This document shows, one piece after another, positions 4,401 to 57,712 of a DNA stretch of 64,000 nt. A program made the translations under genes and the position numbers. The stretch lies in assembly GCA_017537175.1 (NCBI GenBank), contig JAFYLH010000001.1, positions 15,387 to 79,386 of the forward strand, given 5' to 3'. The stretch is from Clostridia bacterium. Its GTDB lineage: Bacteria; Bacillota; Clostridia; Oscillospirales; CAG-272. The stretch's first letter is position 1. Every line of letters starts with the position of its first letter. Below the pieces are notes generated by a model. The model did not search any database. It was not told the DNA's origin and was given only the letters and a program-made list of their open reading frames with translations.

Positions 4401-4737
4401 TTTCAAGACAAAGTACCGCCTGTTCGTAGGTCAGCTTTTTACCTGTATGAGCGGCATTATTACCTAAAGTGCGGATAAGCTTAAGGCGTTCCCATATATC
4501 GTTACCTACGATATCTCTGAAATCCTCGTTATCTGTAAGGCTTCTTAAACTGTCATCCCAAGGCATAGTGAGAGAACTGTCAACCGAATACATCCATTTG
4601 ACAGCAAACTCCATAGCCCTGCGGCAGTTAACGACACAGGCAGACAGGTCAATATGTAATATCTTCTCTGCAGCTATAGCAACATCTGAAAATGTGTCAA
4701 ACTGCGGGGATTTTTTTAGGAATTTAAAGTTAGTCAT
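1444..4737 (-). CDS. hsdR: Type I restriction enzyme R subunit
   Basis: 1097 aa with SF2 helicase motif I (MATGSGKTRT) and a DEAH box (VICDEAHRS). The long N- and C-terminal extensions are typical of HsdR. It is in an operon with hsdM and hsdS. Confidence 0.93.
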   Translation of the reverse strand: MTNFKFLKKSPQFDTFSDVAIAAEKILHIDLSACVVNCRRAMEFAVKWMYSVDSSLTMPWDDSLRSLTDNEDFRDIVGNDIWERLKLIRTLGNNAAHTGKKLTYEQAVLCLENLYIFLDFIAYCYGEEYESGEFDPSLLKPTQEPVKAEIPDVDFEALIAENKALKDELTARRTEQQQTYVPKPLDISEYTTRKVYIDAMLIDAGWAEGKDWINEVELEGMPNNAEVGYADYVLYGDDGRALAVIEAKRTCVDVSKGRQQAKLYADLLEKKYGRRPVIFLTNGFDTRITDNLYPERRVAAIYSKRDLEKLFNLQTMRTSLKHITVDKNIAGRYYQEGAVKAVCDSFGERNRRKALLVMATGSGKTRTVISLCDVLLNHGWVKNILFLADRNSLVTQAKRSFVNMLPDLSVTNLCEDKENYNAHCVFSTYQTMMNCIDSVKDDKGKLFTCGHFDLVICDEAHRSIYNKYRDIFNYFDAPLVGLTATPKDEIDKNTYEIFELENGVPTYGYELAQAVRDGYLVDFMTIETKLKFIEQGIVYDELSDEDKEAYEATFTDENGELPEKINSSALNQWLFNEDTIKEVLNVLMTHGLKIDYGSKIGKTIIFAKNHRHAEKIYDIFNKEYPHLPGYAKVIDNYMTYAQSAIDEFSDAKKLPQIAISVDMLDTGIDVPEALNLVFFKKVMSKAKFWQMIGRGTRKCDGLIDGEDKKIFYIFDFCGNFEFFRMNVNGRANANQLSVQGAIFSLKSQIAYKLQDIDFQSPELIEFRKALVDDMVTKVRELNKENFAVKQHLRYVELYSNPDNYTTLTYEDTLKMTDELAPLITPYDDEAKAVRFDALMYGIELAYLVGKKYSRARTDLYKKVSALAKIGGNIPEITAQSELIDKLLHTDYLDNAGINEFEHIREKLRDLIKYIPVNHITFNTNFDDEILAIDWNESELENDDLANYKAKAEFYVRQHQNEAVIAKLKSNEPLTHEDVEALEKILWSEVGTKADYEAEYGNKPLGEFVREIVGLDMNAAKTAFAEYLNDTNLNSKQIYFVNQIVEYIVHNGLLKDMSILTESPFTDNGSIVEVFTDVTVWFGIKKIIDSINANALAA

Positions 4738-37716: not shown

Positions 37717-38589
37717 ATGAAGCTGACACAGAATGATATTACCAGAGTAAAGGGTCTTGGTTGTCTGAGAGACAAAAGAACCGAGGACTGCTTCAATGTC
37801 CGTGTTATAACCGTTAACGGTAAGCTGACAGCCGATAAAATGCAGGCTGTAGCCGAGGCATCAAGGCTTTTTGGCTCGGGAGAGGTTACAATGACATCCC
37901 GTATGACCCTTGAGATACAGGGGGTAAAATACGAAAGCTTAGAGGATCTGTTTGAATTTCTCAACAAGCACGGTCTGGAGTCGGGAGGTACAGGTCCTAA
38001 GGTAAGACCTGTGGTATCCTGTAAGGGTACTACCTGTCAGTACGGTCTGATAGATACATTTTCTCTCTCCGAAAAGATACACGAGCGCTTTTATAAGGGT
38101 ATGCACGATGTTACACTGCCCCATAAATTCAAGATAGCTGTAGGCGGCTGTCCCAACAGCTGTGTAAAGCCCGAGACCAACGATATAGGTATAGTGGGTC
38201 AGAGAGTTCCTGTATTCAATGAGGATAAGTGTAAAAGCTGCAAGGTATGCTCCGCTGCCGAAATTTGCGCTGTTAAGGCCGCGTCCTTTGACGGTGGATT
38301 TAAGATAAAGGAAACCTGTAACGGCTGCGGCAGATGTATTGCAAAATGTCCCTTTGGAGCTGTTGAAGAAAAGGTAAACGGCTACAAAATGTATATCGGC
38401 GGCAGATGGGGCAAGAAAAAGGCTATGGCTATGCCTCTGTCAAAGGTATTTGCAAGTGAAGAGGAGCTGCTGGATGCTGTTGAAAGAGCTATACTCTTCT
38501 TTAAGGACGAGGGTATTGCAGGGGAGAGATTCTCTGATACTATCGCCCGTCTTGGCTTTGAATACGCAGAAAGCAAGATAATCAAGTGA
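37717..38589 (+). CDS. Nitrite/sulfite-reductase-like 4Fe-4S/siroheme-domain protein with a 2x[4Fe-4S] ferredoxin insert
   Basis: 290 aa. It has a NIR_SIR ferredoxin-like N-terminus, the Cys motif CKGTTCQYG...GGCPNSC, and two CxxCxxCxxxC(P) clusters. Its stop overlaps the next start (GTGA). Confidence 0.65.
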   Translation: MKLTQNDITRVKGLGCLRDKRTEDCFNVRVITVNGKLTADKMQAVAEASRLFGSGEVTMTSRMTLEIQGVKYESLEDLFEFLNKHGLESGGTGPKVRPVVSCKGTTCQYGLIDTFSLSEKIHERFYKGMHDVTLPHKFKIAVGGCPNSCVKPETNDIGIVGQRVPVFNEDKCKSCKVCSAAEICAVKAASFDGGFKIKETCNGCGRCIAKCPFGAVEEKVNGYKMYIGGRWGKKKAMAMPLSKVFASEEELLDAVERAILFFKDEGIAGERFSDTIARLGFEYAESKIIK

Positions 38590-39506
38590 AAAGACTTTTA
38601 ACTATAGTACTTTTATCAGTTATCCTTACAGGATGTACACCCAAGGTTGTATCGGTGGATGGATGCTTTTATAGCTTTACCGATTCGTCGGGCTATGAGG
38701 TGATCCTTGCAGACAAGCCCCAACGGGTGGCAGTTCTTTTCTCCTCCTATGCCGAGATATGGAATATCTCGGGAGGGACTGTGGATATCAGCGTAGCGGA
38801 AAGTGTGGAAAGAGGCTTTTGCGGCAAGGATACTGTTCTTGTGGATGACAAAAGCGGTCATACAGCAATAAATACAGAGCTTCTTTTGGCAAGCAAGCCT
38901 GATCTGGTAATAGGAACCCTTGACCACGAGATCCAACGGGAATGTGCGGAGCTTTGCCGTAATGCGGGTATTCCGGCGGCACTTTTCAAAGTCGAGGGCT
39001 TTGAGGATTATCTCAAGATGCTCAGGATATGCTGTGATATCAATGAAAACGAGGAAAGCTACAGGATATACGGCTCCGATATAGAAAAGGAGATAAACGG
39101 ACTTTTAGATACCGTACCCGATAAAAAAACAGAAATTCTCTTTGTCCGTTGCGGCTCGGCTGAGCGATCCACCAAGGCAAAGACGGCAGAAAACAACTTT
39201 GTTTGCAAAATGCTTTGTGAGCTTGGCACATATAATATTGCACAAAATGCGCCAATACTCCTTGACGGACTGAGTATAGAGGAAATAATCAAGGAGGATC
39301 CCGAGCATATCTTTGTCACCACAATGGGGGATGAGAAGGCTGCGCAGGACTATTTTTCTTCCCTGCTTAAAACAGAGGGGTGGAGCTCGCTTACCGCGGT
39401 AAAGACAGGGAATGTGCATTTTCTGCCCAAAAACGACTTTCATTATAAGCCCAACCACCGTTGGGCAGAGGCATACAGGTATCTGTATGAGCTGATATAT
39501 GCTTAA
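38586..39506 (+). CDS. ABC transporter substrate-binding lipoprotein (iron-siderophore/heme/cobalamin class, PBP type 8)
   Basis: It has a GTG start and a lipobox (VILTGC). The length and layout are FecB/BtuF-like, and it is followed by a FecCD permease and an ATPase. Confidence 0.75.
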   Translation: MKRLLTIVLLSVILTGCTPKVVSVDGCFYSFTDSSGYEVILADKPQRVAVLFSSYAEIWNISGGTVDISVAESVERGFCGKDTVLVDDKSGHTAINTELLLASKPDLVIGTLDHEIQRECAELCRNAGIPAALFKVEGFEDYLKMLRICCDINENEESYRIYGSDIEKEINGLLDTVPDKKTEILFVRCGSAERSTKAKTAENNFVCKMLCELGTYNIAQNAPILLDGLSIEEIIKEDPEHIFVTTMGDEKAAQDYFSSLLKTEGWSSLTAVKTGNVHFLPKNDFHYKPNHRWAEAYRYLYELIYA

Positions 39507-40458
39507 AAAATTCATTTTGCTCCTTATCTTGCTTATATTAAGCATTGCACTTGCCCTTTGTGTAGGTGCGGTCAATATATTTGCCTGTGATAAGGACACC
39601 CTTTATACAATACTTACCACAATACGCCTGCCCCGTGTGCTTGGTGCCGCCCTGTGCGGTGCCGCACTTGCTACAGGCGGAACAATACTGCAATGTGTTA
39701 CCCAAAACCACCTCAGCGCGCCCTCTGTTATAGGTATTAACTCGGGGGCGGGGTTTGCAGTCATACTGACCCTTTGCTTTATTCCCTCTCTTTGGATGCT
39801 TTTGCCTGTGGCTGCCTTTTTGGGTGCCATACTCAGCTGTGCTCTTATAATGGGTATAGCCTTCGGTACAGGTAAAAAAACAGGCGGAAGTATTATCATT
39901 CTCTGCGGTGTGGCCGTTTCTTCAATGCTTTCGGCAGGGATATCCTTTTTGTCGCTTCGGTATCCCGATGTGTTAAGCTCCTATACCGCTTTTTCGGTAG
40001 GAGGCTTCTCGGGTACAGGCTGGAGAGAGCTTTTGATACCCTGTATAATTATTCATATTGCTCTTATCGTTTTACAGGCTATCTCTCCCAAGCTGAACCT
40101 GCTTTGCTTAGGTGATGAGATGGCTTCTACCCTTGGTGTAAATGTCAGATCAATACGCATAACCGCCCTTATCTGCACCTCTGCACTGTGCGCCTGTGCG
40201 GTATCCTTTGCAGGTCTTTTGGGATTTGTGGGACTTATAGTACCTCATATTGTCCGCCGTATGGCCGGAAATGATATACGGTACAATATCCCCCTTTCTT
40301 ACACGGCGGGTGCGGTGCTGTGTGTACTCTCGGATCTTTTGGGAAGAACCCTTTTTACCCCTACAGAGCTTCCCTGCGGTATAATTATGGCATTTATAGG
40401 TGCTCCCTTCTTCCTTTATTTGCTTATAGCAAGGAGGTACAAAGGTGATAGAATGTAA
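39499..40458 (+). CDS. FecCD/BtuC-family ABC permease
   Basis: 319 aa and polytopic. The conserved LPRVLGAALCGAALATGG and MAFIGAPFFLYLL regions are present. Confidence 0.88.
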   Translation: MLKKFILLLILLILSIALALCVGAVNIFACDKDTLYTILTTIRLPRVLGAALCGAALATGGTILQCVTQNHLSAPSVIGINSGAGFAVILTLCFIPSLWMLLPVAAFLGAILSCALIMGIAFGTGKKTGGSIIILCGVAVSSMLSAGISFLSLRYPDVLSSYTAFSVGGFSGTGWRELLIPCIIIHIALIVLQAISPKLNLLCLGDEMASTLGVNVRSIRITALICTSALCACAVSFAGLLGFVGLIVPHIVRRMAGNDIRYNIPLSYTAGAVLCVLSDLLGRTLFTPTELPCGIIMAFIGAPFFLYLLIARRYKGDRM

Positions 40459-41161
40459 AAATCTGTCTGTTAAAGGCATCCTCCGTGATATATCATTCAA
40501 GGCAAATGCCGCAGAGATAACCGTTATTATCGGCAAAAACGGTAGCGGTAAGACCACACTTTTAAGGTGTCTGTCAAATGCTGTCGGATATAAGGGTGAG
40601 GTCTTTATAAATAATAAGGAAGTAAAATGCTACGGCAAAAACGAGCTTTCAAGGTTGATAGCTCTTATGCCACAGTCTCTCCCACTTCCCGATGTCAGCC
40701 TCAGAAGGCTTGTTGGATTTGGCAGAGCGCCCTATACAGGCTTTAGCGGAAGGTTATCACTTGAGGACAATAAGATCATCGATTCTGCCATCCAGGCGGT
40801 GGGTCTGGGTAATATTGCCGACAGGAGCATCACTCTGCTGTCAGGCGGCGAGAGGCGTCTTGCGTATTTTGCAATGCTTCTTTGTCAGTCAACACCGGTT
40901 ATTATCTGTGATGAGCCTACGGCTAATCTTGACACAGAGCATCAAAAGGCTATTCTTTCGCTTCTCTGTAAACAAAGAGAGCTTGGCAAGACGGTTATTT
41001 GTGTACTCCACGATATAAATCAGACCGTAGAGATCGCTGACCGTATACTTTTGATCGATTCGGGTACTCTGAGCTTTTACGGAACCGAGCTTTATGATCT
41101 GCCTGTAAGCCATTTTGGCCTGACCGAATATGACTGCAACGGCAAAAAGCTGTACTTGTGA
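40445..41161 (+). CDS. ABC transporter ATP-binding protein (FepC/BtuD-like)
   Basis: It has Walker A (GKNGSGKTT), the signature LSGGERRL and Walker B (VIICDEP). Confidence 0.9.
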   Translation: MIECKNLSVKGILRDISFKANAAEITVIIGKNGSGKTTLLRCLSNAVGYKGEVFINNKEVKCYGKNELSRLIALMPQSLPLPDVSLRRLVGFGRAPYTGFSGRLSLEDNKIIDSAIQAVGLGNIADRSITLLSGGERRLAYFAMLLCQSTPVIICDEPTANLDTEHQKAILSLLCKQRELGKTVICVLHDINQTVEIADRILLIDSGTLSFYGTELYDLPVSHFGLTEYDCNGKKLYL

Positions 41162-41180
41162 ATAAAGTTTGAAAAAACTA

Positions 41181-41209
41181 TTGACAAACGGTATTCATAG
41201 TGCTACAAT
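41181..41209 (+). promoter_or_regulatory. Putative aro operon promoter
   Basis: TTGACA (41181-41186), a 17-nt spacer, then TACAAT (41204-41209). Confidence 0.5.
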
Positions 41210-41237
41210 GTAATTAATTCTTTAACGGAGTAAACCA

Positions 41238-41306
41238 ATGAAGCAGAATTTCTACTTTAGCAACAACTATTTTTACTTTACTGAGTATTTTGGTAAGGTC
41301 ATTTAG
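41238..41306 (+). CDS. Candidate Phe/Tyr-rich leader peptide (22 aa)
   Basis: Hand translation gives MKQNFYFSNNYFYFTEYFGKVI*, with 5 Phe and 4 Tyr in 22 residues. A GGAG lies 7 nt upstream of the ATG. It sits between the promoter and a terminator hairpin, upstream of the aromatic biosynthesis genes. Confidence 0.55.
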   Translation: MKQNFYFSNNYFYFTEYFGKVI

Positions 41307-41345
41307 TGTTGCCGTGATTTATTGGTCTTAAATAAGATTATTTAA

Positions 41346-41380
41346 CCCCGGTAACTAAAAGGTTATCGGGGCTTTATTAT
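41346..41380 (+). terminator. Attenuator terminator in the aro leader
   Basis: Hairpin CCCCGGTAAC-TAAAAG-GTTATCGGGG (10 bp including one G-U) followed by CTTTATTATT. The left arm (CGGTAAC) can alternatively pair with GTTGCCG at 41308-41314, just after the leader stop codon. Confidence 0.55.
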
Positions 41381-41406
41381 TAAATATAATTTTAAGGAGA
41401 TATATT

Positions 41407-42414
41407 ATGATCATCGTTTTAAAGGAGCAGCCCGAGGCACAACAGCTGCAAAATCTTGAGGAGTGGCTTATAGGCTTAGGACTTGAAATACATCATTCTG
41501 AGGGTATTCACTCTACCGTTTTGGGTCTTGTTGGTGACACAAGCCGTGTTGACACGGATCTTATTGAAGCCCTTGATATAGTTGCAAGTGTTAAACGGAT
41601 CCAGGAGCCCTATAAGAACGCAAACCGTAAGTTCCATCCATTAAACAGCGTTATAAACATAGGCGACACCTCTATAGGCGGTGACATATTTGCCAAGATA
41701 GCAGGTCCCTGCTCGGTTGAGAGCGAGGAGCAGATAATCTCCATAGCTAAGGATGTCAAGGCTGCCGGTGCTACGATGCTCCGCGGCGGTGCATTCAAGC
41801 CAAGAACCTCTCCCTATGCCTTCCAGGGTATGGGCGGTGACGGTATAGAGCTGCTTCTCAAAGCCAAGAAGGAAACAGGTCTTCCCATAGTTACCGAGGT
41901 TATGGACTTAAGTCAGCTTGATCTGTTCGCAGATGTGGATGTTATCCAGGTTGGCGCAAGAAATATGCAGAACTTCCAGCTCTTAAAGGAGCTTGGACAC
42001 TCAAACAAGCCTATTCTCTTAAAGAGAGGTCTTGCGGCTACCATAAGCGAGCTTCTTATGTCGGCTGAATATATAATGGCAGGCGGTAACGAAAATGTCA
42101 TCCTCTGCGAACGTGGTATCCGTACCTTTGAGACTGCAACCCGAAATACCCTTGATATATCAGCTGTTCCTGTACTCAAGGAGCTTTCTCATCTGCCTGT
42201 GGTAATCGACCCCAGCCACTCGGCGGGTATTGCAAGATATGTGCATACCCTGACTATGTCGGCGGTAGCGGCTGGTGTTGACGGTATTATGATAGAGGTA
42301 CACAACGATCCTGCAAAGGCCCTCTGCGACGGGCCTCAGTCGATAAAGCCTGATGCCTTTGCAAAGATATCAAAGGATATAGATACACTTCTTGACACGG
42401 TAAAAGGATTTTAA
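41407..42414 (+). CDS. aroF: 3-deoxy-7-phosphoheptulonate (DAHP) synthase, type I-beta, with an N-terminal ferredoxin-like regulatory domain
   Basis: 335 aa. A KDO8P/DAHPS I-beta core (GPCSVES...KPRTSPY...DPSH) is preceded by a ~70-aa extra domain. Confidence 0.9.
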   Translation: MIIVLKEQPEAQQLQNLEEWLIGLGLEIHHSEGIHSTVLGLVGDTSRVDTDLIEALDIVASVKRIQEPYKNANRKFHPLNSVINIGDTSIGGDIFAKIAGPCSVESEEQIISIAKDVKAAGATMLRGGAFKPRTSPYAFQGMGGDGIELLLKAKKETGLPIVTEVMDLSQLDLFADVDVIQVGARNMQNFQLLKELGHSNKPILLKRGLAATISELLMSAEYIMAGGNENVILCERGIRTFETATRNTLDISAVPVLKELSHLPVVIDPSHSAGIARYVHTLTMSAVAAGVDGIMIEVHNDPAKALCDGPQSIKPDAFAKISKDIDTLLDTVKGF

Positions 42415-42416
42415 TT

Positions 42417-43253
42417 ATGAAAAAAACAGTAGGTATTATAGGTCTCGGTCTTATCGGCGGTTCACTTGCTAAGGCCTTTAAAAAGCATACAAATCATACT
42501 ATTTTAGGCTATAACCGTACCCTCACCGTCTGTAAAAAGGCGCTGGAGGATGAGTCTATTGATGAGATAATGACTATAGAGGATCTGGGTAGATGCGATA
42601 TGGTCATAGTAGCGCTCTATCCCGAGGCTACCATCAATTTTGTAAAGGATAACATTTCTCTTTTCAAAAAAAGTGCGGTAATAATGGACTGCTCGGGTAC
42701 AAAGCAGATGGTCTGCACAGAGCTGTCCCCCCTTTGCCGTGAGAACGGTCTCTACTTTATAGGCGGACATCCTATGGCAGGCATAGAGCGCTCGGGCTAC
42801 AAATATTCATATGCCGAGATGTATGAGGGTGCTACAATGATCCTCTGCCGTGATGAAAACACTAATCTTATTGCCTTAAAGGCTGCGGAGCTTCTGTTCC
42901 TTGAAATAGGCTTTGGACGTGTAACCGTAACCGATGCAAAGACCCACGACTCAAATATTGCATTTACCTCACAGCTTGCCCACGTGGTATCAAATGCCTT
43001 TATCAAAAGTCCTACAGCCAAGCGTCAGGACGGCTTCTCTGCCGGCAGCTACAAGGATCTTACCCGTGTTGCAAGGCTTAACGAGGATATGTGGACAGAG
43101 CTTTTCTTTGATAACAAGGCTCCGCTGAGTTATGAAATTGAAACCATAATCGAGAGCTTACAGCAGTATCTTGATGCTTTAAATTGTGATGACAGAGAAA
43201 AAATGAGAACACTTCTGCGTGAAGGCAGAGAGGCTAAAGAGTCTATCGGCTAA
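42417..43253 (+). CDS. tyrA: Prephenate dehydrogenase
   Basis: 278 aa with a Rossmann motif (VGIIGLGLIGGSLA) and GGHPMAG. Confidence 0.87.
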   Translation: MKKTVGIIGLGLIGGSLAKAFKKHTNHTILGYNRTLTVCKKALEDESIDEIMTIEDLGRCDMVIVALYPEATINFVKDNISLFKKSAVIMDCSGTKQMVCTELSPLCRENGLYFIGGHPMAGIERSGYKYSYAEMYEGATMILCRDENTNLIALKAAELLFLEIGFGRVTVTDAKTHDSNIAFTSQLAHVVSNAFIKSPTAKRQDGFSAGSYKDLTRVARLNEDMWTELFFDNKAPLSYEIETIIESLQQYLDALNCDDREKMRTLLREGREAKESIG

Positions 43254-43327
43254 GCGGCAAGTTGCCGCTGCCAAAATCGGGTGAAGCAAGAAGAACAAAT
43301 CACACGAGGATGAAGGAAGATAAAATC

Positions 43328-44362
43328 ATGAAGAATATCAATGTTAAGACATCTAAACCATATGAAGTCAGGGTCGGAAAAGGACTTTTAGAAAATATTG
43401 CCCGGGAAATATCCGACCTTAAAAAGCCGGAAAAATGTATGATAATATCGGATGATATCGTATTTTCCCTCTACGGTGAGAGAGTAAAGAAATCCCTTAC
43501 CGAGGCGGGATATACCGTATACGAGGCGGTGTTCCCTCACGGAGAGGAATCAAAGAATATGGAAACCGCACTTTCGCTCTTAACAGCTTGCTTTGAGGCA
43601 GGACTTACCCGCTCCGACTTTATTATAGCCCTTGGCGGCGGTATAGTCGGGGATGTATGCGGCTTTGTCTCCTCTATATATCTACGCGGCATTGATTTTA
43701 TACAGATTCCCACCACCCTGCTTGCGGCAATAGATTCATCGGTAGGCGGCAAAACAGGAGTTAATACAGACTACGGTAAGAACCTTATCGGTGCCTTCCA
43801 TCAGCCTGTAAGAGTGCTCTGCGATACCGATACCTTTAACACTCTGCCCTATGACATATATACCGCAGGTATATGCGAGGCTTTGAAATACGGAGTTATC
43901 CGTGACGGGGACCTCTTTTATGCCATAGGTAACGGAGATATAGAGGACATCGTGTGCAGATGTGTACAGATAAAGGCAGATATTGTAGAAAATGACGAGT
44001 TTGACCACGGTGAGCGACAGCTTCTTAACTTCGGTCATACACTTGGTCATTCTATCGAGGCTTTAAGCAATTTTGAGATATCCCACGGTCACGCCGTAGG
44101 TCTGGGAATGCTTATAATGACCCGTGCCTGTGAAAACCGCGGACTTTGCGAAAAAGGTATATCAAACGAAATAGAAAAGGCTTTGAAGAGCTTTGAAATT
44201 GATACAGATATCAGCTACACGGCAAAGGAATTGGCATCCTTTGCTATGTCTGACAAAAAGCGCAAGGGTAACAAAATAACCCTTGTTATTCCCGAAAAGA
44301 TGGGAAAATGCGTATTACACACCATATCTACAGATAATTTAGAGGAATTTATCAGCTTATGA
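43328..44362 (+). CDS. aroB: 3-dehydroquinate synthase
   Basis: I trimmed the start to MKNINVKT. It has GGGIVGD and the metal-binding motif HTLGHSIE. Confidence 0.9.
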   Translation: MKNINVKTSKPYEVRVGKGLLENIAREISDLKKPEKCMIISDDIVFSLYGERVKKSLTEAGYTVYEAVFPHGEESKNMETALSLLTACFEAGLTRSDFIIALGGGIVGDVCGFVSSIYLRGIDFIQIPTTLLAAIDSSVGGKTGVNTDYGKNLIGAFHQPVRVLCDTDTFNTLPYDIYTAGICEALKYGVIRDGDLFYAIGNGDIEDIVCRCVQIKADIVENDEFDHGERQLLNFGHTLGHSIEALSNFEISHGHAVGLGMLIMTRACENRGLCEKGISNEIEKALKSFEIDTDISYTAKELASFAMSDKKRKGNKITLVIPEKMGKCVLHTISTDNLEEFISL

Positions 44363-45522
44363 TAGCAACCATCACTCCTGCCGAACTCCGCGGCAGTATA
44401 GAAGCAATCGCTTCAAAATCCTATGCTCACAGAATTATAATCGCCGCAGCTCTTTCGGACAAGCCTACCGAAATATATATCAACGGCATTTCAAACGATG
44501 TTATTGATACCGTAAATGCGGTAAATTGCCTTGGTGCAAAGGCAGAAATAAAGGGCAATATCATCTCCGTTGAGCCTGTAAAAAAGATCTCGGGTGAGGT
44601 CAATATAGAGATAAGCGAAAGCGGCACCACCGCAAGACTTATACTGCCCATAGCCTGTGCCTTATATCAAAAGGGTACTCTTACGGGCAAGGGGTCTCTT
44701 GTAAAAAGACCCTTTAAGCCGTTATGTGATGCCATATCCGAGCACGGGATAGCTTTTTCGGGCAATTATCTGCCCATATCCTTTGAGGGTAAAATGACAG
44801 CAGGTGAGTATAAGATAGCAGGCTCGGAGAGCTCACAGTATATCTCGGCTCTGCTCTATACCCTACCTCTGCTGAACGATGAAAGCAAGGTAACGCTTAC
44901 ATCTCCTCTTGCATCCGAAGGGTATGTGGATATAACCCTTGATGTATTAAAACAGTTTGGTATAACAGGTGGCTATGAGTATAAGGGCGAAGAAAAATAC
45001 ACCACACCCGGCAGAATAAGCGTTGAGGGGGATTGGTCAAACTCAACCTTCTGGCTTTGTGCGGGAGTTGAGGTGAAGGGGCTGAAAGCAGATTCCTGTC
45101 AGCGTGACCGACTATTTGACCTTGTAAAGGACCAGGACGAAATTGATGCAGAGCATATACCCGACCTTGTTCCGATATTAAGTGTATATGCGGCATCCAA
45201 AAACAAAAATACAAGAATATACAACATAAGCCGCCTTCGTATAAAGGAAAGCGACCGCATAAGGAGTGTATGCGATATGATCACATCCCTTGGCGGCAGG
45301 ATAGAAGCAGATGACAACGAGATGGTCATTTACGGTACAGGCTCTCTTACAGGCGGTACTGTTGACAGCTACAATGACCACCGCATCGTTATGAGTGCGG
45401 CTATTGCATCAACAATATGCAAAAACAAGGTCATAATCCGCGGTGCCGAAGCGGTAAACAAGTCATATCCTGACTTTTTCAATGATTTTAACTCTCTCGG
45501 AGGTAAGGCAGATGTCAAATAG
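44359..45522 (+). CDS. aroA: 3-phosphoshikimate 1-carboxyvinyltransferase (EPSP synthase)
   Basis: 387 aa with SKSYAHR near the N-terminus and C-terminal DHRIVMSAAIA. The start overlaps the aroB stop (ATGA). Confidence 0.9.
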   Translation: MIATITPAELRGSIEAIASKSYAHRIIIAAALSDKPTEIYINGISNDVIDTVNAVNCLGAKAEIKGNIISVEPVKKISGEVNIEISESGTTARLILPIACALYQKGTLTGKGSLVKRPFKPLCDAISEHGIAFSGNYLPISFEGKMTAGEYKIAGSESSQYISALLYTLPLLNDESKVTLTSPLASEGYVDITLDVLKQFGITGGYEYKGEEKYTTPGRISVEGDWSNSTFWLCAGVEVKGLKADSCQRDRLFDLVKDQDEIDAEHIPDLVPILSVYAASKNKNTRIYNISRLRIKESDRIRSVCDMITSLGGRIEADDNEMVIYGTGSLTGGTVDSYNDHRIVMSAAIASTICKNKVIIRGAEAVNKSYPDFFNDFNSLGGKADVK

Positions 45523-46573
45523 AATAGGAAACAGCATATCGGTACAGATATTCGGACAGTCACATTCAAAGGTCATAGGCTGTATAATAGAGGGTCTGCC
45601 TGCAGGCTTTACCCCCGATATAGAACGCATACAAAAGGACCTTGACAGGCGCAGAGGCGGTAAGAACCGTTATTCTACAGCCAGAGCAGAGGCAGACGAG
45701 CCTTATATCCTCTCGGGACTTGTAGACGGTGTTACCTGCGGTGCGCCCCTGTGTGTGTCCTTTAAAAATAAGGATACCAAAAGTAACGATTATGACGAAT
45801 TAAGAGATAAGCCCAGACCCGGACACGCAGATTACACCGCATATGTACGCACAGGCGGTCATAATGACATCCGCGGCGGCGGTGAGTTTTCGGGCAGACT
45901 GACCCTTCCCTTATGCTTTGCAGGCTCTCTCTGTAAGCAGCTGCTTGAAACAAAGGGTGTATATATCGGTGCTCATATAGCCTCGGTAGGTATAGTAAAC
46001 GACAGTCTGTACGATCCCGTAAGCCTCACAAGACAGGATCTTGAGGCTGACGGCTTCCCTGTTCTTGATCGCGATATGGTCGAGGTTATGGAAAAATATA
46101 TGACCGAGATCGCAGAAGAGGGTGACTCGGTAGGCGGAGTTATAGAATGTGCCGCTATCGGTATGCCCGCAGGCTACGGCTCGCCTATGTTTGAGGGTGT
46201 GGAGAGTGAGATAGCCAAGATCATATTCGGCATCCCCGCCATCAAGGGTATTGAGTTCGGTGCAGGCTTTAGTGTTGCACAGATGAAGGGCTCTGAGAAC
46301 AACGACCCCTTTGAATATGACGGCAGAAAGGTAGTTACCGGGACAAACAATGCAGGCGGAATCCTTGGCGGTATTACCAACGGCATGCCCATAATCTTCC
46401 GCTGTGCTGTCAAGCCTACTCCTTCTATTGCAAAGGAGCAGAACACCGTAAACCTTAAAAGAGGTGCAAATGACACCCTTGTAATCAAGGGCAGACACGA
46501 TCCCTGTATAGTACCCCGCGCCGTTCCTGTAGTAGAGGCGGCCTGTGCCATAGCACTTATCAATCTTCTGTGA
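45512..46573 (+). CDS. aroC: Chorismate synthase
   Basis: The start is at MSNRIGNS with a GGAGG RBS 8 nt upstream. GQSHS and the RPGHAD motif are present. Confidence 0.92.
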   Translation: MSNRIGNSISVQIFGQSHSKVIGCIIEGLPAGFTPDIERIQKDLDRRRGGKNRYSTARAEADEPYILSGLVDGVTCGAPLCVSFKNKDTKSNDYDELRDKPRPGHADYTAYVRTGGHNDIRGGGEFSGRLTLPLCFAGSLCKQLLETKGVYIGAHIASVGIVNDSLYDPVSLTRQDLEADGFPVLDRDMVEVMEKYMTEIAEEGDSVGGVIECAAIGMPAGYGSPMFEGVESEIAKIIFGIPAIKGIEFGAGFSVAQMKGSENNDPFEYDGRKVVTGTNNAGGILGGITNGMPIIFRCAVKPTPSIAKEQNTVNLKRGANDTLVIKGRHDPCIVPRAVPVVEAACAIALINLL

Positions 46574-46583
46574 GGAAAAAAGA

Positions 46584-47720
46584 ATGGATCTCAAGGATAT
46601 AAGAAACAAAATAGACTCTATAGACGATGAGCTGTTAGAGCTCTTTAAAAAGCGTATGGATATAGTATCCGAGGTTGCCGCCTACAAGCGTGAGCACGGA
46701 CTTCCCATACTCAATTCGCAAAGAGAACGGGACATAGTTGCCCGTGTGAGCGAGGGTATGGATGATTCTATGGCATCCTATACCAAGACCTGGTTCAATA
46801 CCATGTTTGAATGCAGCCGCTCTTATCAGAGTATGCAAAACAAGCCTAAAACAGATACAGAAGCAAAGATCGAGGCTGCTCTGCTCCCTGCTGAAACTCT
46901 GTTCCCCAAGAGTGCGGTGGTTGCCTGTCAGGGTGTGGAGGGTGCAAACTCTCAGCTTGCCTGCGACAGGCTCTTTGACAGACCCAAGATCATGTATATG
47001 AGCTCCTTTGACTCGGTGTTTACCGCCGTTGACAAGGGATTATGCAAGTACGGCATCCTTCCTATAGAAAACTCGCTCCACGGCTCTGTTATATCTGTAT
47101 ATGACCTTATGAAGAAGTACCGCTTCCACATTGTTCGCTCTGTTCGTATAAAAATAGACCATATGCTTATGACAAAGCCGGGGGTTGCCCTCTCTGATAT
47201 AAAGGAAATATACTCCCACGAGCAGGCACTTGCTCAATGCAGTGATTATCTTTCCTCCCTTGGTATACGGCTTATCCCCTGTGAGAACACCGCAACCGCG
47301 GCAAAGATAGTCTCCGAGAGTAACCGCCGTGATATTGCGGCAATATCCTCCCGCAACTGTGCGGAGCTGTATGATCTTTGTATAATTGCCGATAATATCC
47401 AGAACAGCGACAACAATTATACACGCTTTATCTGTATATCAAAGGATCTTGCCATCTATCCCGGTGCCAACAAGATATCTATTATGTTTACCATTCCCCA
47501 CCGTCCCGGTGCACTTTATTCAATAATATCCACCTTCTCGGTGCTGGGTGTCAACCTTACAAAGCTTGAAAGCCGTCCCATACCGGGCAAGGACTTTGAG
47601 TTCATGTTCTACCTTGATTTTGATGCTTCGGTGTATTCCAAGGATATACGTCATCTGATCTCGGTGTTGGAAGAAGATCCTGAATATTTTGCCTTCTTAG
47701 GTAACTATCTTGAGGTTTGA
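46584..47720 (+). CDS. pheA: Bifunctional chorismate mutase / prephenate dehydratase (P-protein)
   Basis: 378 aa. It has an N-terminal CM type 2 domain (IDSIDDELLELFKKRM), a PDT domain and a C-terminal ACT domain (ESRP). Confidence 0.9.
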   Translation: MDLKDIRNKIDSIDDELLELFKKRMDIVSEVAAYKREHGLPILNSQRERDIVARVSEGMDDSMASYTKTWFNTMFECSRSYQSMQNKPKTDTEAKIEAALLPAETLFPKSAVVACQGVEGANSQLACDRLFDRPKIMYMSSFDSVFTAVDKGLCKYGILPIENSLHGSVISVYDLMKKYRFHIVRSVRIKIDHMLMTKPGVALSDIKEIYSHEQALAQCSDYLSSLGIRLIPCENTATAAKIVSESNRRDIAAISSRNCAELYDLCIIADNIQNSDNNYTRFICISKDLAIYPGANKISIMFTIPHRPGALYSIISTFSVLGVNLTKLESRPIPGKDFEFMFYLDFDASVYSKDIRHLISVLEEDPEYFAFLGNYLEV

Positions 47721-47721
47721 T

Positions 47722-48945
47722 ATGTACGGACTTATAGGAAAAAAATTAGGTCACAGCTATTCTGTACCCATACACAGAGCCTTGGGTAACAAGGATTATA
47801 CCCTGAAGGAAATCCCCCCTGAGGGGGTCGAGTCCTTTATGCGTGAGCATAGCTTTAAGGGTATAAATGTTACAATTCCATACAAAGAGGCTGTTATGCC
47901 CTATCTTGACGAAATATCGGACAGGGCAAAGAGAATTGGCTCGGTCAACACTGTTGTCAACCGTTGTGGCAGGCTGTACGGTGACAATACCGATTATTAC
48001 GGCTTTAGCTATATGGCAAAAAGCGCGGGAATAAGCTTTAAGGATAAAAAGGTAGTTATATTGGGTGGCGGCGGTACTTCCCTTACCGCACAGGCTGTTA
48101 CGCGTGATGAGGGTGCAAGGGAGATAATTGTTGTCAGCCGTAAGGGCGAAAACAATTATGACAATCTGCATCTACATTACGATGCCGAGATTATTATAAA
48201 CTGCACTCCTGTGGGTATGTACCCAAATGTAGAGGACACACTTATTGATTTAGAACCCTTTACAAAGCTTTGCGGTGTCATAGACGTAATATACAACCCC
48301 TCAAAGACAAACATCCTTATAGATGCAAAAAAACGCGGTATTCCCTGCACCAACGGTCTTTCCATGCTGGTAGCGCAGGCCAAGCTTGCCCACGAGCTCT
48401 TCTTTGATACTACAGTTGATGACACTGAAATAGAACGCATCAAACAGGATCTTGAGCTTGATAAAGCTAATATTGTTTTTGTAGGTATGCCGGGCAGCGG
48501 AAAGTCTACCCTATCCCACAGCATTGCAAGTATACTTGGAAGAAAGGTGATCGACACCGATGATATGATCTGCCAAAGGGATTGCAGAAGTATACCCGAC
48601 ATTTTTGCTGATAAGGGAGAAGAATACTTCCGTGACCTTGAGTCTGACTGCATCAAGGAGGCCTGCCAAAGCGAAAAATCGGTTATAGCAACCGGCGGAG
48701 GTGCTGTGCTGCGTGAAGAAAATCGCAGATGGATTATGCGTAACTCTGTTGTTATTTGGCTCAAACGTCCTGTACAGGAGCTTGCCCGTGACGGCAGACC
48801 GCTGTCAAGTGAGGATGACGCAAAGATGCAGAAAATGTATGAATTCCGTGAGCCCTTCTACAATGTGGTAGCGGATATCATAATCGACGTTGACCCCGAT
48901 CCCGCCGTAACAGCAGATAAAATAATGCAAAAATTAAGGAGCTGA
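47722..48945 (+). CDS. aroE: Shikimate dehydrogenase / shikimate kinase fusion
   Basis: The start is at MYGLIGKKLGHSYS with GAGG 6 nt upstream. The AroE N-terminal and Rossmann domains are followed by the AroK Walker A (GMPGSGKST). Confidence 0.88.
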   Translation: MYGLIGKKLGHSYSVPIHRALGNKDYTLKEIPPEGVESFMREHSFKGINVTIPYKEAVMPYLDEISDRAKRIGSVNTVVNRCGRLYGDNTDYYGFSYMAKSAGISFKDKKVVILGGGGTSLTAQAVTRDEGAREIIVVSRKGENNYDNLHLHYDAEIIINCTPVGMYPNVEDTLIDLEPFTKLCGVIDVIYNPSKTNILIDAKKRGIPCTNGLSMLVAQAKLAHELFFDTTVDDTEIERIKQDLELDKANIVFVGMPGSGKSTLSHSIASILGRKVIDTDDMICQRDCRSIPDIFADKGEEYFRDLESDCIKEACQSEKSVIATGGGAVLREENRRWIMRNSVVIWLKRPVQELARDGRPLSSEDDAKMQKMYEFREPFYNVVADIIIDVDPDPAVTADKIMQKLRS

Positions 48946-57637: not shown

Positions 57638-57712
57638 TGGTGACCCGTGGGGGAATCGAACCCCCGATTCAGCCGTGAGAGGGCTGCGTCTTAGCCGCTT
57701 GACCAACAGGCC
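57638..57712 (-). tRNA. tRNA-Glu: tRNA-Glu (anticodon CUC)
   Basis: The 75-nt hand fold is GGCCTGT/TG/GTC-AAGCGGCTAA-GAC/G/CAGCC-CTCTCAC-GGCTG/AATC/GGGGG-TTCGATT-CCCCC/ACGGGTC/A/CCA. It closely resembles Bacillus tRNA-Glu. An upstream promoter TTGACA-17-TGTTATACT is at 57732-57760. Confidence 0.9.

Follow-up and report, generated by a model that had tools for sequence, protein, structure and literature searches.

In the 64,000-nucleotide stretch of a Clostridia bacterium contig (JAFYLH010000001.1) analyzed here, hereafter called the window, the region directly upstream of the DAHP synthase gene aroF is very probably a ribosome-mediated (leader-peptide) transcription attenuator of the aroF-tyrA-aroB-aroA-aroC-pheA-aroE/K operon. 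The hallmarks of this class are found together in the region: an open reading frame (ORF) with a ribosome-binding site, a cluster of codons for end products of the pathway, a terminator, an antiterminator, and an anti-antiterminator. The element is a full four-segment attenuator with an anti-antiterminator and a conserved inner hairpin, and it exceeds the two-hairpin sketch with which the region was first described. That first-pass annotation, made from the sequence of the window, had proposed ribosome-mediated attenuation, and the proposal is supported by conservation in relatives, by covariation of both alternative folds, and by constrained folding of the leader RNA.

The leader opens with a near-consensus promoter followed by a GGAG motif, both of which are present as first reported (Table 1). 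In particular, the promoter matches 11 of 12 consensus positions, with the -10 box TACAAT at 41204-41209 and the TG dinucleotide of its extension at 41201-41202. The -35 and -10 boxes are kept in eight relatives from the window's own clade (alignment A3, described below) and in L119, a locus from a very abundant species. Transcription probably starts near 41216. The 22-codon ORF, the translation of which was checked, contains 5 Phe and 4 Tyr residues, i.e., the 9 of 22 counted originally, and ends with a TAG stop codon at 41304-41306. Its putative regulatory codons are F5 Y6 F7, Y11 F12 Y13 F14, and Y17 F18. No second short ORF rich in Phe, Tyr, or Trp and provided with a ribosome-binding site was found on either strand of the 64-kb window.

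The leader RNA can adopt two alternative arrangements that share a switch strand, segment 2. Segment 1, which sits within the leader ORF between two Phe/Tyr runs and is aligned by the covariance model (see below) to segment 1 of the family, pairs with 41304-41312 to form the anti-antiterminator helix P1. The arms of the inner hairpin P2 (41275-41284 and 41290-41299) span codons 13-21; P2 might act as a hairpin at which RNA polymerase pauses or from which folding nucleates. Segment 2 overlaps the TAG stop codon, and a terminating ribosome would therefore mask it. The first-pass annotation had proposed that GTTGCCG and CGGTAAC form the antiterminator. This complementarity exists (41308-41314, one base, T41307, past TAG, with 41349-41355, including one G.U pair) and is supported by conservation and covariation in relatives. 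The full antiterminator joins 41302-41314 to 41349-41359 (CGGTAACTAAA, the terminator 5′ arm plus loop) through 7 + 4 bp with a 2-nt bulge. The terminator hairpin consists of segment 3 (41346-41356), an AAAA loop (41357-41360), and segment 4 (41361-41371), with a closing U.G pair, and ends 36 nt 5′ of aroF. The hairpin and the T-rich run that follows it had been recognized correctly, whereas the stem has 11 bp rather than the 10 originally given. An attenuated transcript would end in the T-rich tail and measure approx. 160-165 nt.

Folding of the leader RNA (41210-41406), the first check that had been recommended, gave a minimum free energy (MFE) of -48.1 kcal/mol, lower than that of all 200 shuffled sequences (z = -4.25). 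The individual energies are -16.6 kcal/mol for the terminator, -13.6 kcal/mol for the antiterminator domain, and -16.9 kcal/mol for the P1/P2 domain, and the terminator state is the lowest of the alternative states. To represent the ribosome, the nascent RNA, ending at the terminator loop, was folded with a 30-nt footprint centered on the A-site as a constraint. With the ribosome stalled at Y11 or F14, the GUUGCCG:CGGUAAC helix forms; with no ribosome, or with a ribosome on the stop codon, it is absent. These folds agree with the original suggestion that a ribosome at the stop codon masks the antiterminator strand and that stalling at Phe/Tyr codons frees it.

Several further pairings were seen in the same RNA. 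In the MFE folds, TTATTGG (41319-41325) pairs with CCGGTAA, and this pairing was considered as a second antiterminator; it was rejected because no convincing covariation was found in the clade alignment. The same weaker complement, UUAUUGG with CCGGUAA (41348-41354), appears in ribosome-free nascent folds and could be a decoy or a product of chance. In the MFE structure of the terminated leader, ACCAAUGAAG (41234-41243) pairs with UGAUUUAUUGGU (41315-41326), 3′ of segment 2, and terminated transcripts would thereby have their leader start codon concealed; as a part of the switch, this pairing of the start-codon region was likewise discarded for want of convincing covariation in alignment A3. 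The stretch that links segment 2 to the terminator contains a 7-bp hairpin made of A and U only (UUAAAUA-AGAU-UAUUUAA, within 41328-41345), and its length and sequence differ widely among relatives.

The leader ORF is conserved upstream of aroF far beyond the window. AroF homologues down to approx. 62% identity were found in metagenome-assembled genomes (MAGs) labelled Oscillospiraceae, Ruminococcaceae, Acutalibacteraceae, or Clostridia, and also in isolates (Oscillibacter valericigenes, Angelakisella massiliensis, Pseudoflavonifractor, Hominicoprocola). Eighty related aroF loci, one per GTDB species, were collected, and the 450 nt upstream of aroF were scanned for ORFs of 8-50 codons that start with ATG and contain at least five Phe, Tyr, or Trp residues within an 8-residue window; 76 loci were counted. 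Such an ORF is present in 55 of the 76. Under the same definition, the controls yielded 2/76 for the reverse complement, 0/68 and 0/73 for two further regions of these loci, and 43/1520 (2.8%) for dinucleotide shuffles, and with a threshold of six residues the count is 46/76 loci versus 3/1520 shuffles. Neither the ORF nor its Phe/Tyr enrichment is therefore lacking in relatives (55/76 versus 0-2 per control set). Moreover, most of the approx. 21 loci called leaderless by the strict filter (first ATG, at most 50 codons) hold a Phe/Tyr tract when inspected in three frames; these leaders were missed owing to an in-frame upstream ATG or a GTG or TTG start. A relaxed scan brings the total to approx. 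65 leaders, nearly all of which start with ATG and have a ribosome-binding site (a motif 4-13 nt 5′ of the ATG). A leader of this pheL-like type had been thought uncommon in the lineage; Oscillospiraceae-like genomes instead carry it as a rule upstream of aroF.

The peptides themselves, exemplified by MSTFTFAAEYRYFSFTYYFGKAYFGLAENECV (O. valericigenes), MTKNVFTAAYFYFYFIK, MTIRSFTAAYYYYYYFTGKSNSDFCCENEVVSLR, and MKNLFAAFFFNYFYFFGFSADKVKVLFAANNGATTFA, range from 14 to 47 residues and vary in sequence; the Phe/Tyr run persists, with exchange of one residue for the other. The order of the two residues differs between relatives (YYYYYY, FYFYF, FFFNYFYFF), with codon position 2 alternating between T and A. 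Such exchange and variable order point to selection on the tRNAs decoded rather than on a fixed RNA or protein motif. A strong terminator lies 3′ of nearly all related leaders, with a clean run of 6-8 T residues in most. In four loci (L006, L009, L060, and L073), an extra spacer separates attenuator and aroF, and the aroF start is 130-330 nt away from leader and terminator, compared with the usual 25-60 nt. Four other loci (L008, L050, L058, and L072) carry an Oscillospiraceae-like aroF on contigs from MAGs labelled Spirochaetales, Alloprevotella, or Victivallales; L058 has a Phe/Tyr leader ORF and L050 matches the leader model R1 (see below). Binning contamination is the likely cause of these labels, and horizontal transfer is possible.

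An exact-protein look-up yielded seven closer relatives from the clade of the window, with AroF identities of 71-90%, which were aligned (A3). They retain the intergenic leader and the aroF-tyrA-aroB order, while their upstream neighbors all differ (competence protein, Dus, histidine kinase, ACT-domain protein, LPG synthase, URO-D). Their leaders (MKRNYFSNNYFYFTEFFGKVI, MKFVNYFSNYYYFTEFFGKVI, MKYTNYFSNFYYFTEFFGKVI, MTNSNLYFGNTYYYFTVYSGKVI, MMHTNNYFYGYFYFTAFTVKSIGVAEK, and MRQLFLSTFAYFFSFTGFYFCKAHLCAYAS) show Phe/Tyr swaps at several positions. The apex of P2 varies in a compensatory manner (U.G/G.U, C-G/G-C, U-A/G-C, and A-U/G-C), and in one relative (L083) a distal antiterminator pair shows a double change from A-U to G-C, in which the A of the window's UAG becomes G and its partner U becomes C.

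Across the family, a consensus was derived from folds of representative leaders together with alignments A1 and A2 (MAFFT, structure-blind, 28 sequences): GCAGCTGAATAC-TTTTACTTTTACTTTACC...GGTAAGGCTT...GTTTnGCTGCAAA...GCCCCGCAGnnAAAC...CTGCGGGGC-TTTTTTT. Family segment 1 is GCAGCUG, directly 5′ of the Phe/Tyr run; segment 2, 3′ of the run, is UUUGGCUG/UUUUGCUGC; segment 3, the terminator 5′ arm plus loop, is CGCAGYNAAAC; and segment 4 is the terminator 3′ arm. P2 is built partly from the last Phe/Tyr codons and the "GK" codons, and the residues SFT...GKA and AAE...LAE of the peptides are conserved because of the RNA helices P2 and P1. Covariation was assessed by pair counts in A2 and in A4, a model alignment of 72 rows. 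In A2, the terminator state (P1, P2, and terminator) is 87.7% paired, versus 34-49% in slid controls (score 0.382 versus at most 0.13), and the antiterminator is 89.5% paired, versus 29-48% (0.408 versus at most 0.13). The corresponding values in A4 are 88.6% versus 37-49% (0.458 versus at most 0.131) for the terminator state and 80.9% versus 31-50% (0.237 versus at most 0.098) for the antiterminator, a helix absent from the structure to which A4 was fitted. Double changes fill 82 cells for the terminator state in A2 compared with 12-24 in the slid controls, a figure reached by none of 500 shuffles, and affect 7 of 10 antiterminator pairs. Pairing reaches 98.7-98.8% in the terminator helix, where 6/9 pairs in A2 and 9/9 in A4 show double changes, and 89-93% in P2 across the family, also with compensatory changes. 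RNAalifold run on the MAFFT alignment recovered P2 and the terminator with compensatory changes and did not recover P1; P1 and the antiterminator were specified by hand and then tested by the pair counts. In a duplex search, the terminator 5′ arm could pair with an upstream segment in all 47 leaders tested, more strongly than in shuffles in 46 of them (mean z = -2.1). The alignment of orthologous leaders that the first-pass annotation had called for thus reveals both a conserved Phe/Tyr run and compensatory stem changes.

The 28 sequences of A2, none of which comes from the window's clade, served to build a covariance model, R1. Applied to the window, it matches 41245-41379 over its full length (44.2 bits, E = 5.8e-9) and aligns P1, P2, and the terminator with their counterparts in the family. 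A second match, at 4587-4718 on the plus strand (16.3 bits, E 0.06), was dismissed as spurious; it lies inside an ORF of 1097 amino acids on the minus strand. In 87 related loci, R1 has 68 plus-strand matches (69 with the window), and those checked lie directly upstream of aroF. Scores on relatives range from 44 to 131 bits, versus 16 for the next-best match in the window. The element was found in approx. 70 of the approx. 90 aroF loci examined and on many metagenome contigs. In particular, R1 matches with 73.1 bits upstream of aroF in L119 and L120, from a very abundant species, the AroF of which occurs on 845 contigs and in 1319 assembly-index blocks; here the leader is MTQINLFYAYFYFYFITLRNKVCKLCCN, behind a TTGACA-17-TACAAT promoter. 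Two genes upstream of this aro leader lies a gene for a Trp/Tyr-RS-like class-Ib aminoacyl-tRNA synthetase (positions 36-1037 of L119/L120, 333 amino acids, PF00579), i.e., another aromatic amino-acid function nearby. A metagenome-wide exact scan with the 21-nt consensus GCAGCTGAATAYTTTTAYTTT matched 31 contigs, with 18 matches in short leaders and 13 arising by chance inside long ORFs. For 15 of the short leaders, the first downstream ORF had sufficient length for a comparison, and all 15 of these ORFs are AroF; no second target gene was found among the 31 matches. The element travels with aroF, whatever the upstream neighbor.

The spacing of the parts in 65 model-aligned leaders suggests how the switch would be read. 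The first Phe/Tyr codon lies 1 nt past segment 1 in most leaders, and 5-11 such codons (median 7) separate segments 1 and 2. As the run adjoins segment 1, a ribosome awaiting Phe-tRNA or Tyr-tRNA would cover this segment and P1 would stay open. In 58 of the 65, the stop codon lies inside segment 2, follows it, or precedes it by no more than 11 nt, close enough for a terminating ribosome to reach the segment. In the mechanism proposed for the window, transcription would begin at approx. 41216, and a ribosome would load at the GGAG and ATG and read the 22-codon leader. A shortage of Phe-tRNA or Tyr-tRNA would stall the ribosome on the Phe/Tyr codons, especially Y11-F14, where it would cover segment 1; segment 2 would then be free to pair with the emerging terminator 5′ arm and loop, the terminator would be blocked, and RNA polymerase would proceed into aroF. 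With ample Phe and Tyr, the ribosome would instead reach the stop codon and mask segment 2, which after ribosome release would pair again with segment 1; the terminator hairpin would form, and transcription would stop near 41375-41381. Leader translation, stalling on Phe/Tyr codons, conditional termination, and the sensing of both Phe and Tyr rather than of Phe alone are predictions.

Table 1. Coordinates of the leader features and of the downstream genes in the window.
Feature	Position	Strand	Details
Sigma-70-type promoter	41181..41209	+	-35 TTGACA 41181-41186; 17-nt spacer; extended -10 TGcTACAAT 41201-41209
Leader Shine-Dalgarno sequence GGAG	41227..41230	+	7 nt 5′ of the ATG at 41238
Leader ORF MKQNFYFSNNYFYFTEYFGKVI, followed by stop	41238..41306	+	22 codons; conserved Phe/Tyr-rich ORFs in relatives
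Segment 1 GCAACAACTA, 5′ strand of anti-antiterminator helix P1	41260..41269	+	MFE folds; model alignment
Inner hairpin P2, ACTTTACTGA with TTGGTAAGGT	41275..41299	+	10 bp; loop GTATT
Segment 2 TTTAGTGTTGCCG, switch strand	41302..41314	+	Pairs with segment 1 (P1) or with the terminator 5′ arm
Intrinsic terminator hairpin	41346..41371	+	11 pairs, 6 of them G-C; -16.6 kcal/mol
T-rich terminator tail CTTTATTATT	41372..41381	+	Sequence reading and terminator scan
aroF ribosome-binding site AAGGAG and ATG	41394..41409	+	ATG at 41407; AAGGAG kept in A3
Operon aroF-tyrA-aroB-aroA-aroC-pheA-aroE/aroK, predicted to be regulated	41407..48945	+	NCBIfam

Several observations weigh against this interpretation. 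In the window, the antiterminator is short, with 7 bp (one of them G.U) plus 4 bp past the bulge, and the 7-bp helix taken alone is only weakly above shuffles (z = -1.86). Promoter-like matches alone are no more frequent than chance (2 found versus 2.1 expected). As neither the promoter match nor the 7-bp complementarity singly exceeds chance, the case rests on the comparative data, in which P1 is the weakest-supported helix (75-77% paired in A2 and A4). The T-tract of the terminator, CTTTATTATT, is interrupted. The terminator state is thermodynamically favored in every case (-44.7 kcal/mol overall); as the ground state is the terminated one, antitermination must be a kinetic, ribosome-dependent outcome, as in trp. 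In 7 of the 65 relatives, a gap of 12-19 nt separates the stop codon from segment 2, which lies further downstream; masking of this segment by a terminating ribosome can thus not be universal. Furthermore, ribosome-mediated attenuation requires translation to keep pace with transcription, and in another Firmicute, Bacillus subtilis, Johnson et al. reportedly found in 2020 that the two processes are functionally uncoupled. Finally, aroR, the comparable leader of Corynebacterium glutamicum (see below), is described as unaffected by Tyr availability (PMC11802643); sensing of both amino acids is therefore not assured.

The most serious alternative is an attenuator that works at the RNA level only, in which the conserved UUUUACUUUUACUUU tract and the helices bind a TRAP- or PyrR-like protein, a small ligand, or a tRNA, the bound partner decides between terminator and antiterminator, and the ORF is incidental. 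The Phe/Tyr tract and segments 1-4 are well conserved at the nucleotide level, the helices P2 and P1 account for part of the peptide conservation (SFT...GKA, AAE...LAE), and T-boxes and RNA-binding proteins commonly control amino-acid operons in Firmicutes (PMC2965389). Against such an attenuator, the approx. 65 leaders keep an in-frame ATG and stop, nearly all with a well-spaced ribosome-binding site; the varying order of Phe and Tyr is unexpected for a fixed binding motif and expected under selection for an amino-acid class; and the stop codon shifts together with segment 2. Nor do known families fill the role. Rfam 15 searched over the whole window at the gathering threshold yielded nothing except a tRNA, and a search of 41100-41500 with E values up to 10 returned only noise, with no T-box (RF00230) and no Phe, Trp, His, or Leu leader. 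A T-box/Rfam scan of 20 related loci gave no match, and the apparently leader-negative relatives have no T-box either; the absence of a T-box sequence noted originally is thus borne out for the window, the leader region, and 20 relatives. An RNA-only attenuator is therefore regarded as improbable.

Action on translation or mRNA stability is still harder to reconcile with the data. Here the leader would serve re-initiation or unmask the aroF ribosome-binding site, and the hairpin would be a constitutive leaky terminator or a stabilizer. Leader ORFs have been proposed to boost downstream translation by re-initiation (PMC4833913); the imperfect T-tract in the window and weak pairing near the aroF ribosome-binding site in the MFE fold would also fit. 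However, the G+C-rich stem of the hairpin and the T-run after it (6-8 clean T residues in most relatives) are typical of intrinsic terminators, and a conserved, covarying competitor of the terminator 5′ arm would be purposeless if termination were not regulated. Moreover, approx. 100 nt separate the leader stop from the aroF start in the window, and in some relatives the gap is 130-330 nt; such distances are too great for coupling, and we consider this explanation highly improbable. A functional aromatic-rich micropeptide, e.g., a membrane peptide, that is merely co-located with the aro operon beyond an ordinary terminator is scarcely credible: the ORF is indeed conserved, hydrophobic, aromatic, and preceded by a good ribosome-binding site, but its length (14-47 residues) and its sequence outside the Phe/Tyr content and the helix-overlapping residues are variable, it always lies directly upstream of aroF whatever the upstream neighbor, and the alternative RNA structures covary. 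Chance co-occurrence of ORF, hairpin, and complementarity in an AT-rich intergenic region would be compatible with promoter-like matches as frequent in shuffles and with a 7-bp complementarity that is weak when taken alone; it is effectively refuted by the occurrence of the ORF in 55/76 loci versus 2.8% of shuffles, by the covariance-model E value of 5.8e-9, by the fold z of -4.25, and by the covariation of both folds.

The genes downstream of the leader correspond to the aromatic pathway. As proposed from the sequence, all seven ORFs are assigned by NCBIfam: DAHP synthase, prephenate dehydrogenase (tyrA), AroB, AroA, AroC, chorismate mutase/prephenate dehydratase (pheA), and a fused AroE/AroK. 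The mechanically called ORFs of aroA (44359-45522) and aroC (45482-46573) overlap by 41 nt; the AroC family match starts at residue 20-21 of its ORF, and the real aroC start is thus probably located further downstream. Upstream of the leader, 38586-41161 encodes an iron-siderophore/B12-type ABC transporter (binding protein, permease, and ATPase) that ends 20 nt before the aro -35 box. As the terminator scan detected no intrinsic terminator from 41161 to the aro promoter, read-through from the transporter genes into the leader is possible. The only match to Rfam at the gathering threshold in the window is a tRNA gene at 57641-57712 on the minus strand.

In the general scheme of such attenuators, the position of the ribosome on the leader decides the fold of the RNA (PMC9413887, PMC8632103). 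The element resembles E. coli trpL, pheL-pheA, pheM-pheST, and hisL in its short ORF with a run of end-product codons, in its four segments, of which 1:2 and 3:4 terminate and 2:3 antiterminates, and in the location of the terminator before the first structural gene. It differs from them in several respects. Its host belongs to a Gram-positive Clostridia lineage; the codon run in the window mixes Phe and Tyr rather than encoding a single amino acid; the loop that separates segments 1 and 2 holds most of the regulatory codons, which begin directly 3′ of segment 1; and some of these codons also contribute to a conserved inner hairpin. Unlike control of pheA only, the window element would govern the common pathway as well as the tyrA and pheA branches. 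Rfam includes the Phe_leader of Gammaproteobacteria, the Lactococcus leu/phe leader, and Trp, His, Thr, and Leu leaders, and the element shows no homology to Rfam leaders even with E up to 10; it is therefore pheL-like in mechanism only.

Two described leaders also precede aroF. In C. glutamicum, aroR encodes an F-Y-F leader peptide upstream of aroF (Mentz 2013, PMC4046766), and ribosome stalling was found experimentally to raise transcription under Phe limitation (Neshat 2014, as cited in PMC11802643). The window leader shares with aroR the Phe/Tyr codons ahead of the DAHP synthase gene; as far as a comparison by description goes, aroR differs in being actinobacterial, in having three aromatic codons as opposed to 5-11 here, and in its other downstream genes. 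The uORFC-13-1 motif is a bioinformatically identified upstream ORF found exclusively upstream of aroF, with 24 representatives in Acholeplasma and unassigned environmental sequences (PMC8632094, Brewer et al. 2021). It comprises promoter boxes, a ribosome-binding site, a start codon, a U-run coding for Phe, and an adjoining terminator, and Phe-sensing attenuation has been proposed for it (PMC8632094). The window likewise has an upstream ORF with Phe codons and a terminator directly 3′ of it, 5′ of aroF. Compared by description only, uORFC-13-1 encodes at least one Phe and no alternating Phe/Tyr run, and whereas it is known from Acholeplasma, the relatives of the window are labelled Oscillospiraceae or Clostridia; a distant kinship of the two is possible.

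Leader-peptide attenuation as such is not foreign to Firmicutes. Attenuators of this type have been described for his genes in the B. cereus group, Peptostreptococcaceae, and Erysipelotrichales (PMC9413887), for hisS/hisZ in bacilli (PMC2965389), and for ilv-leu in S. aureus (PMC5794164). The window element shares their mechanism and phylum, and such attenuators replace T-boxes in some lineages; however, they sense other amino acids, and none acts on aromatic biosynthesis or occurs in Oscillospiraceae-like genomes. T-box riboswitches (RF00230) are also 5′-leader transcription attenuators of Firmicute amino-acid operons that read tRNA charging, but they bind uncharged tRNA directly, whereas sensing by the window element would be indirect, via the translating ribosome. 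Full-text literature searches, in which subscription journals are largely uncovered, turned up no account of the element from Oscillospiraceae or Clostridia, a result that supports novelty only weakly.

Attenuation of the trpL/pheL/hisL type is classical and textbook knowledge, for which reason the conceptual surprise is modest; the family is large, occurs in abundant gut anaerobes, and is without annotation. A bolder proposal is that these leaders form an undescribed, very widespread cis-regulatory RNA family that is the main regulator of shikimate/Phe/Tyr synthesis across Oscillospiraceae-like gut and rumen Clostridia, acting as a single "Phe OR Tyr" ribosome sensor with P2 as a candidate polymerase pause site; taken as a whole, it is tentative and somewhat doubtful. 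If it is true, near-universal retention of the element would imply pause-synchronized coupling of transcription and translation in these Firmicutes, in contrast to the uncoupled, "runaway" transcription that Johnson et al. are said to have pictured for B. subtilis in 2020. Work on B. subtilis suggests that many Firmicutes avoid coupling-dependent mechanisms, and the family offers a natural test case for coupling, or pause synchrony, outside Proteobacteria. Current annotation and Rfam are blank at the element, and the leader ORF, the attenuator, and the R1 model could enter annotation pipelines; as a compact Phe/Tyr-responsive part, the element is also potentially usable in the engineering of gut anaerobes. 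For the organisms themselves, a large and mostly uncultured group of gut and rumen Clostridia, it is likely to be the point at which synthesis of the aromatic amino acids is controlled.

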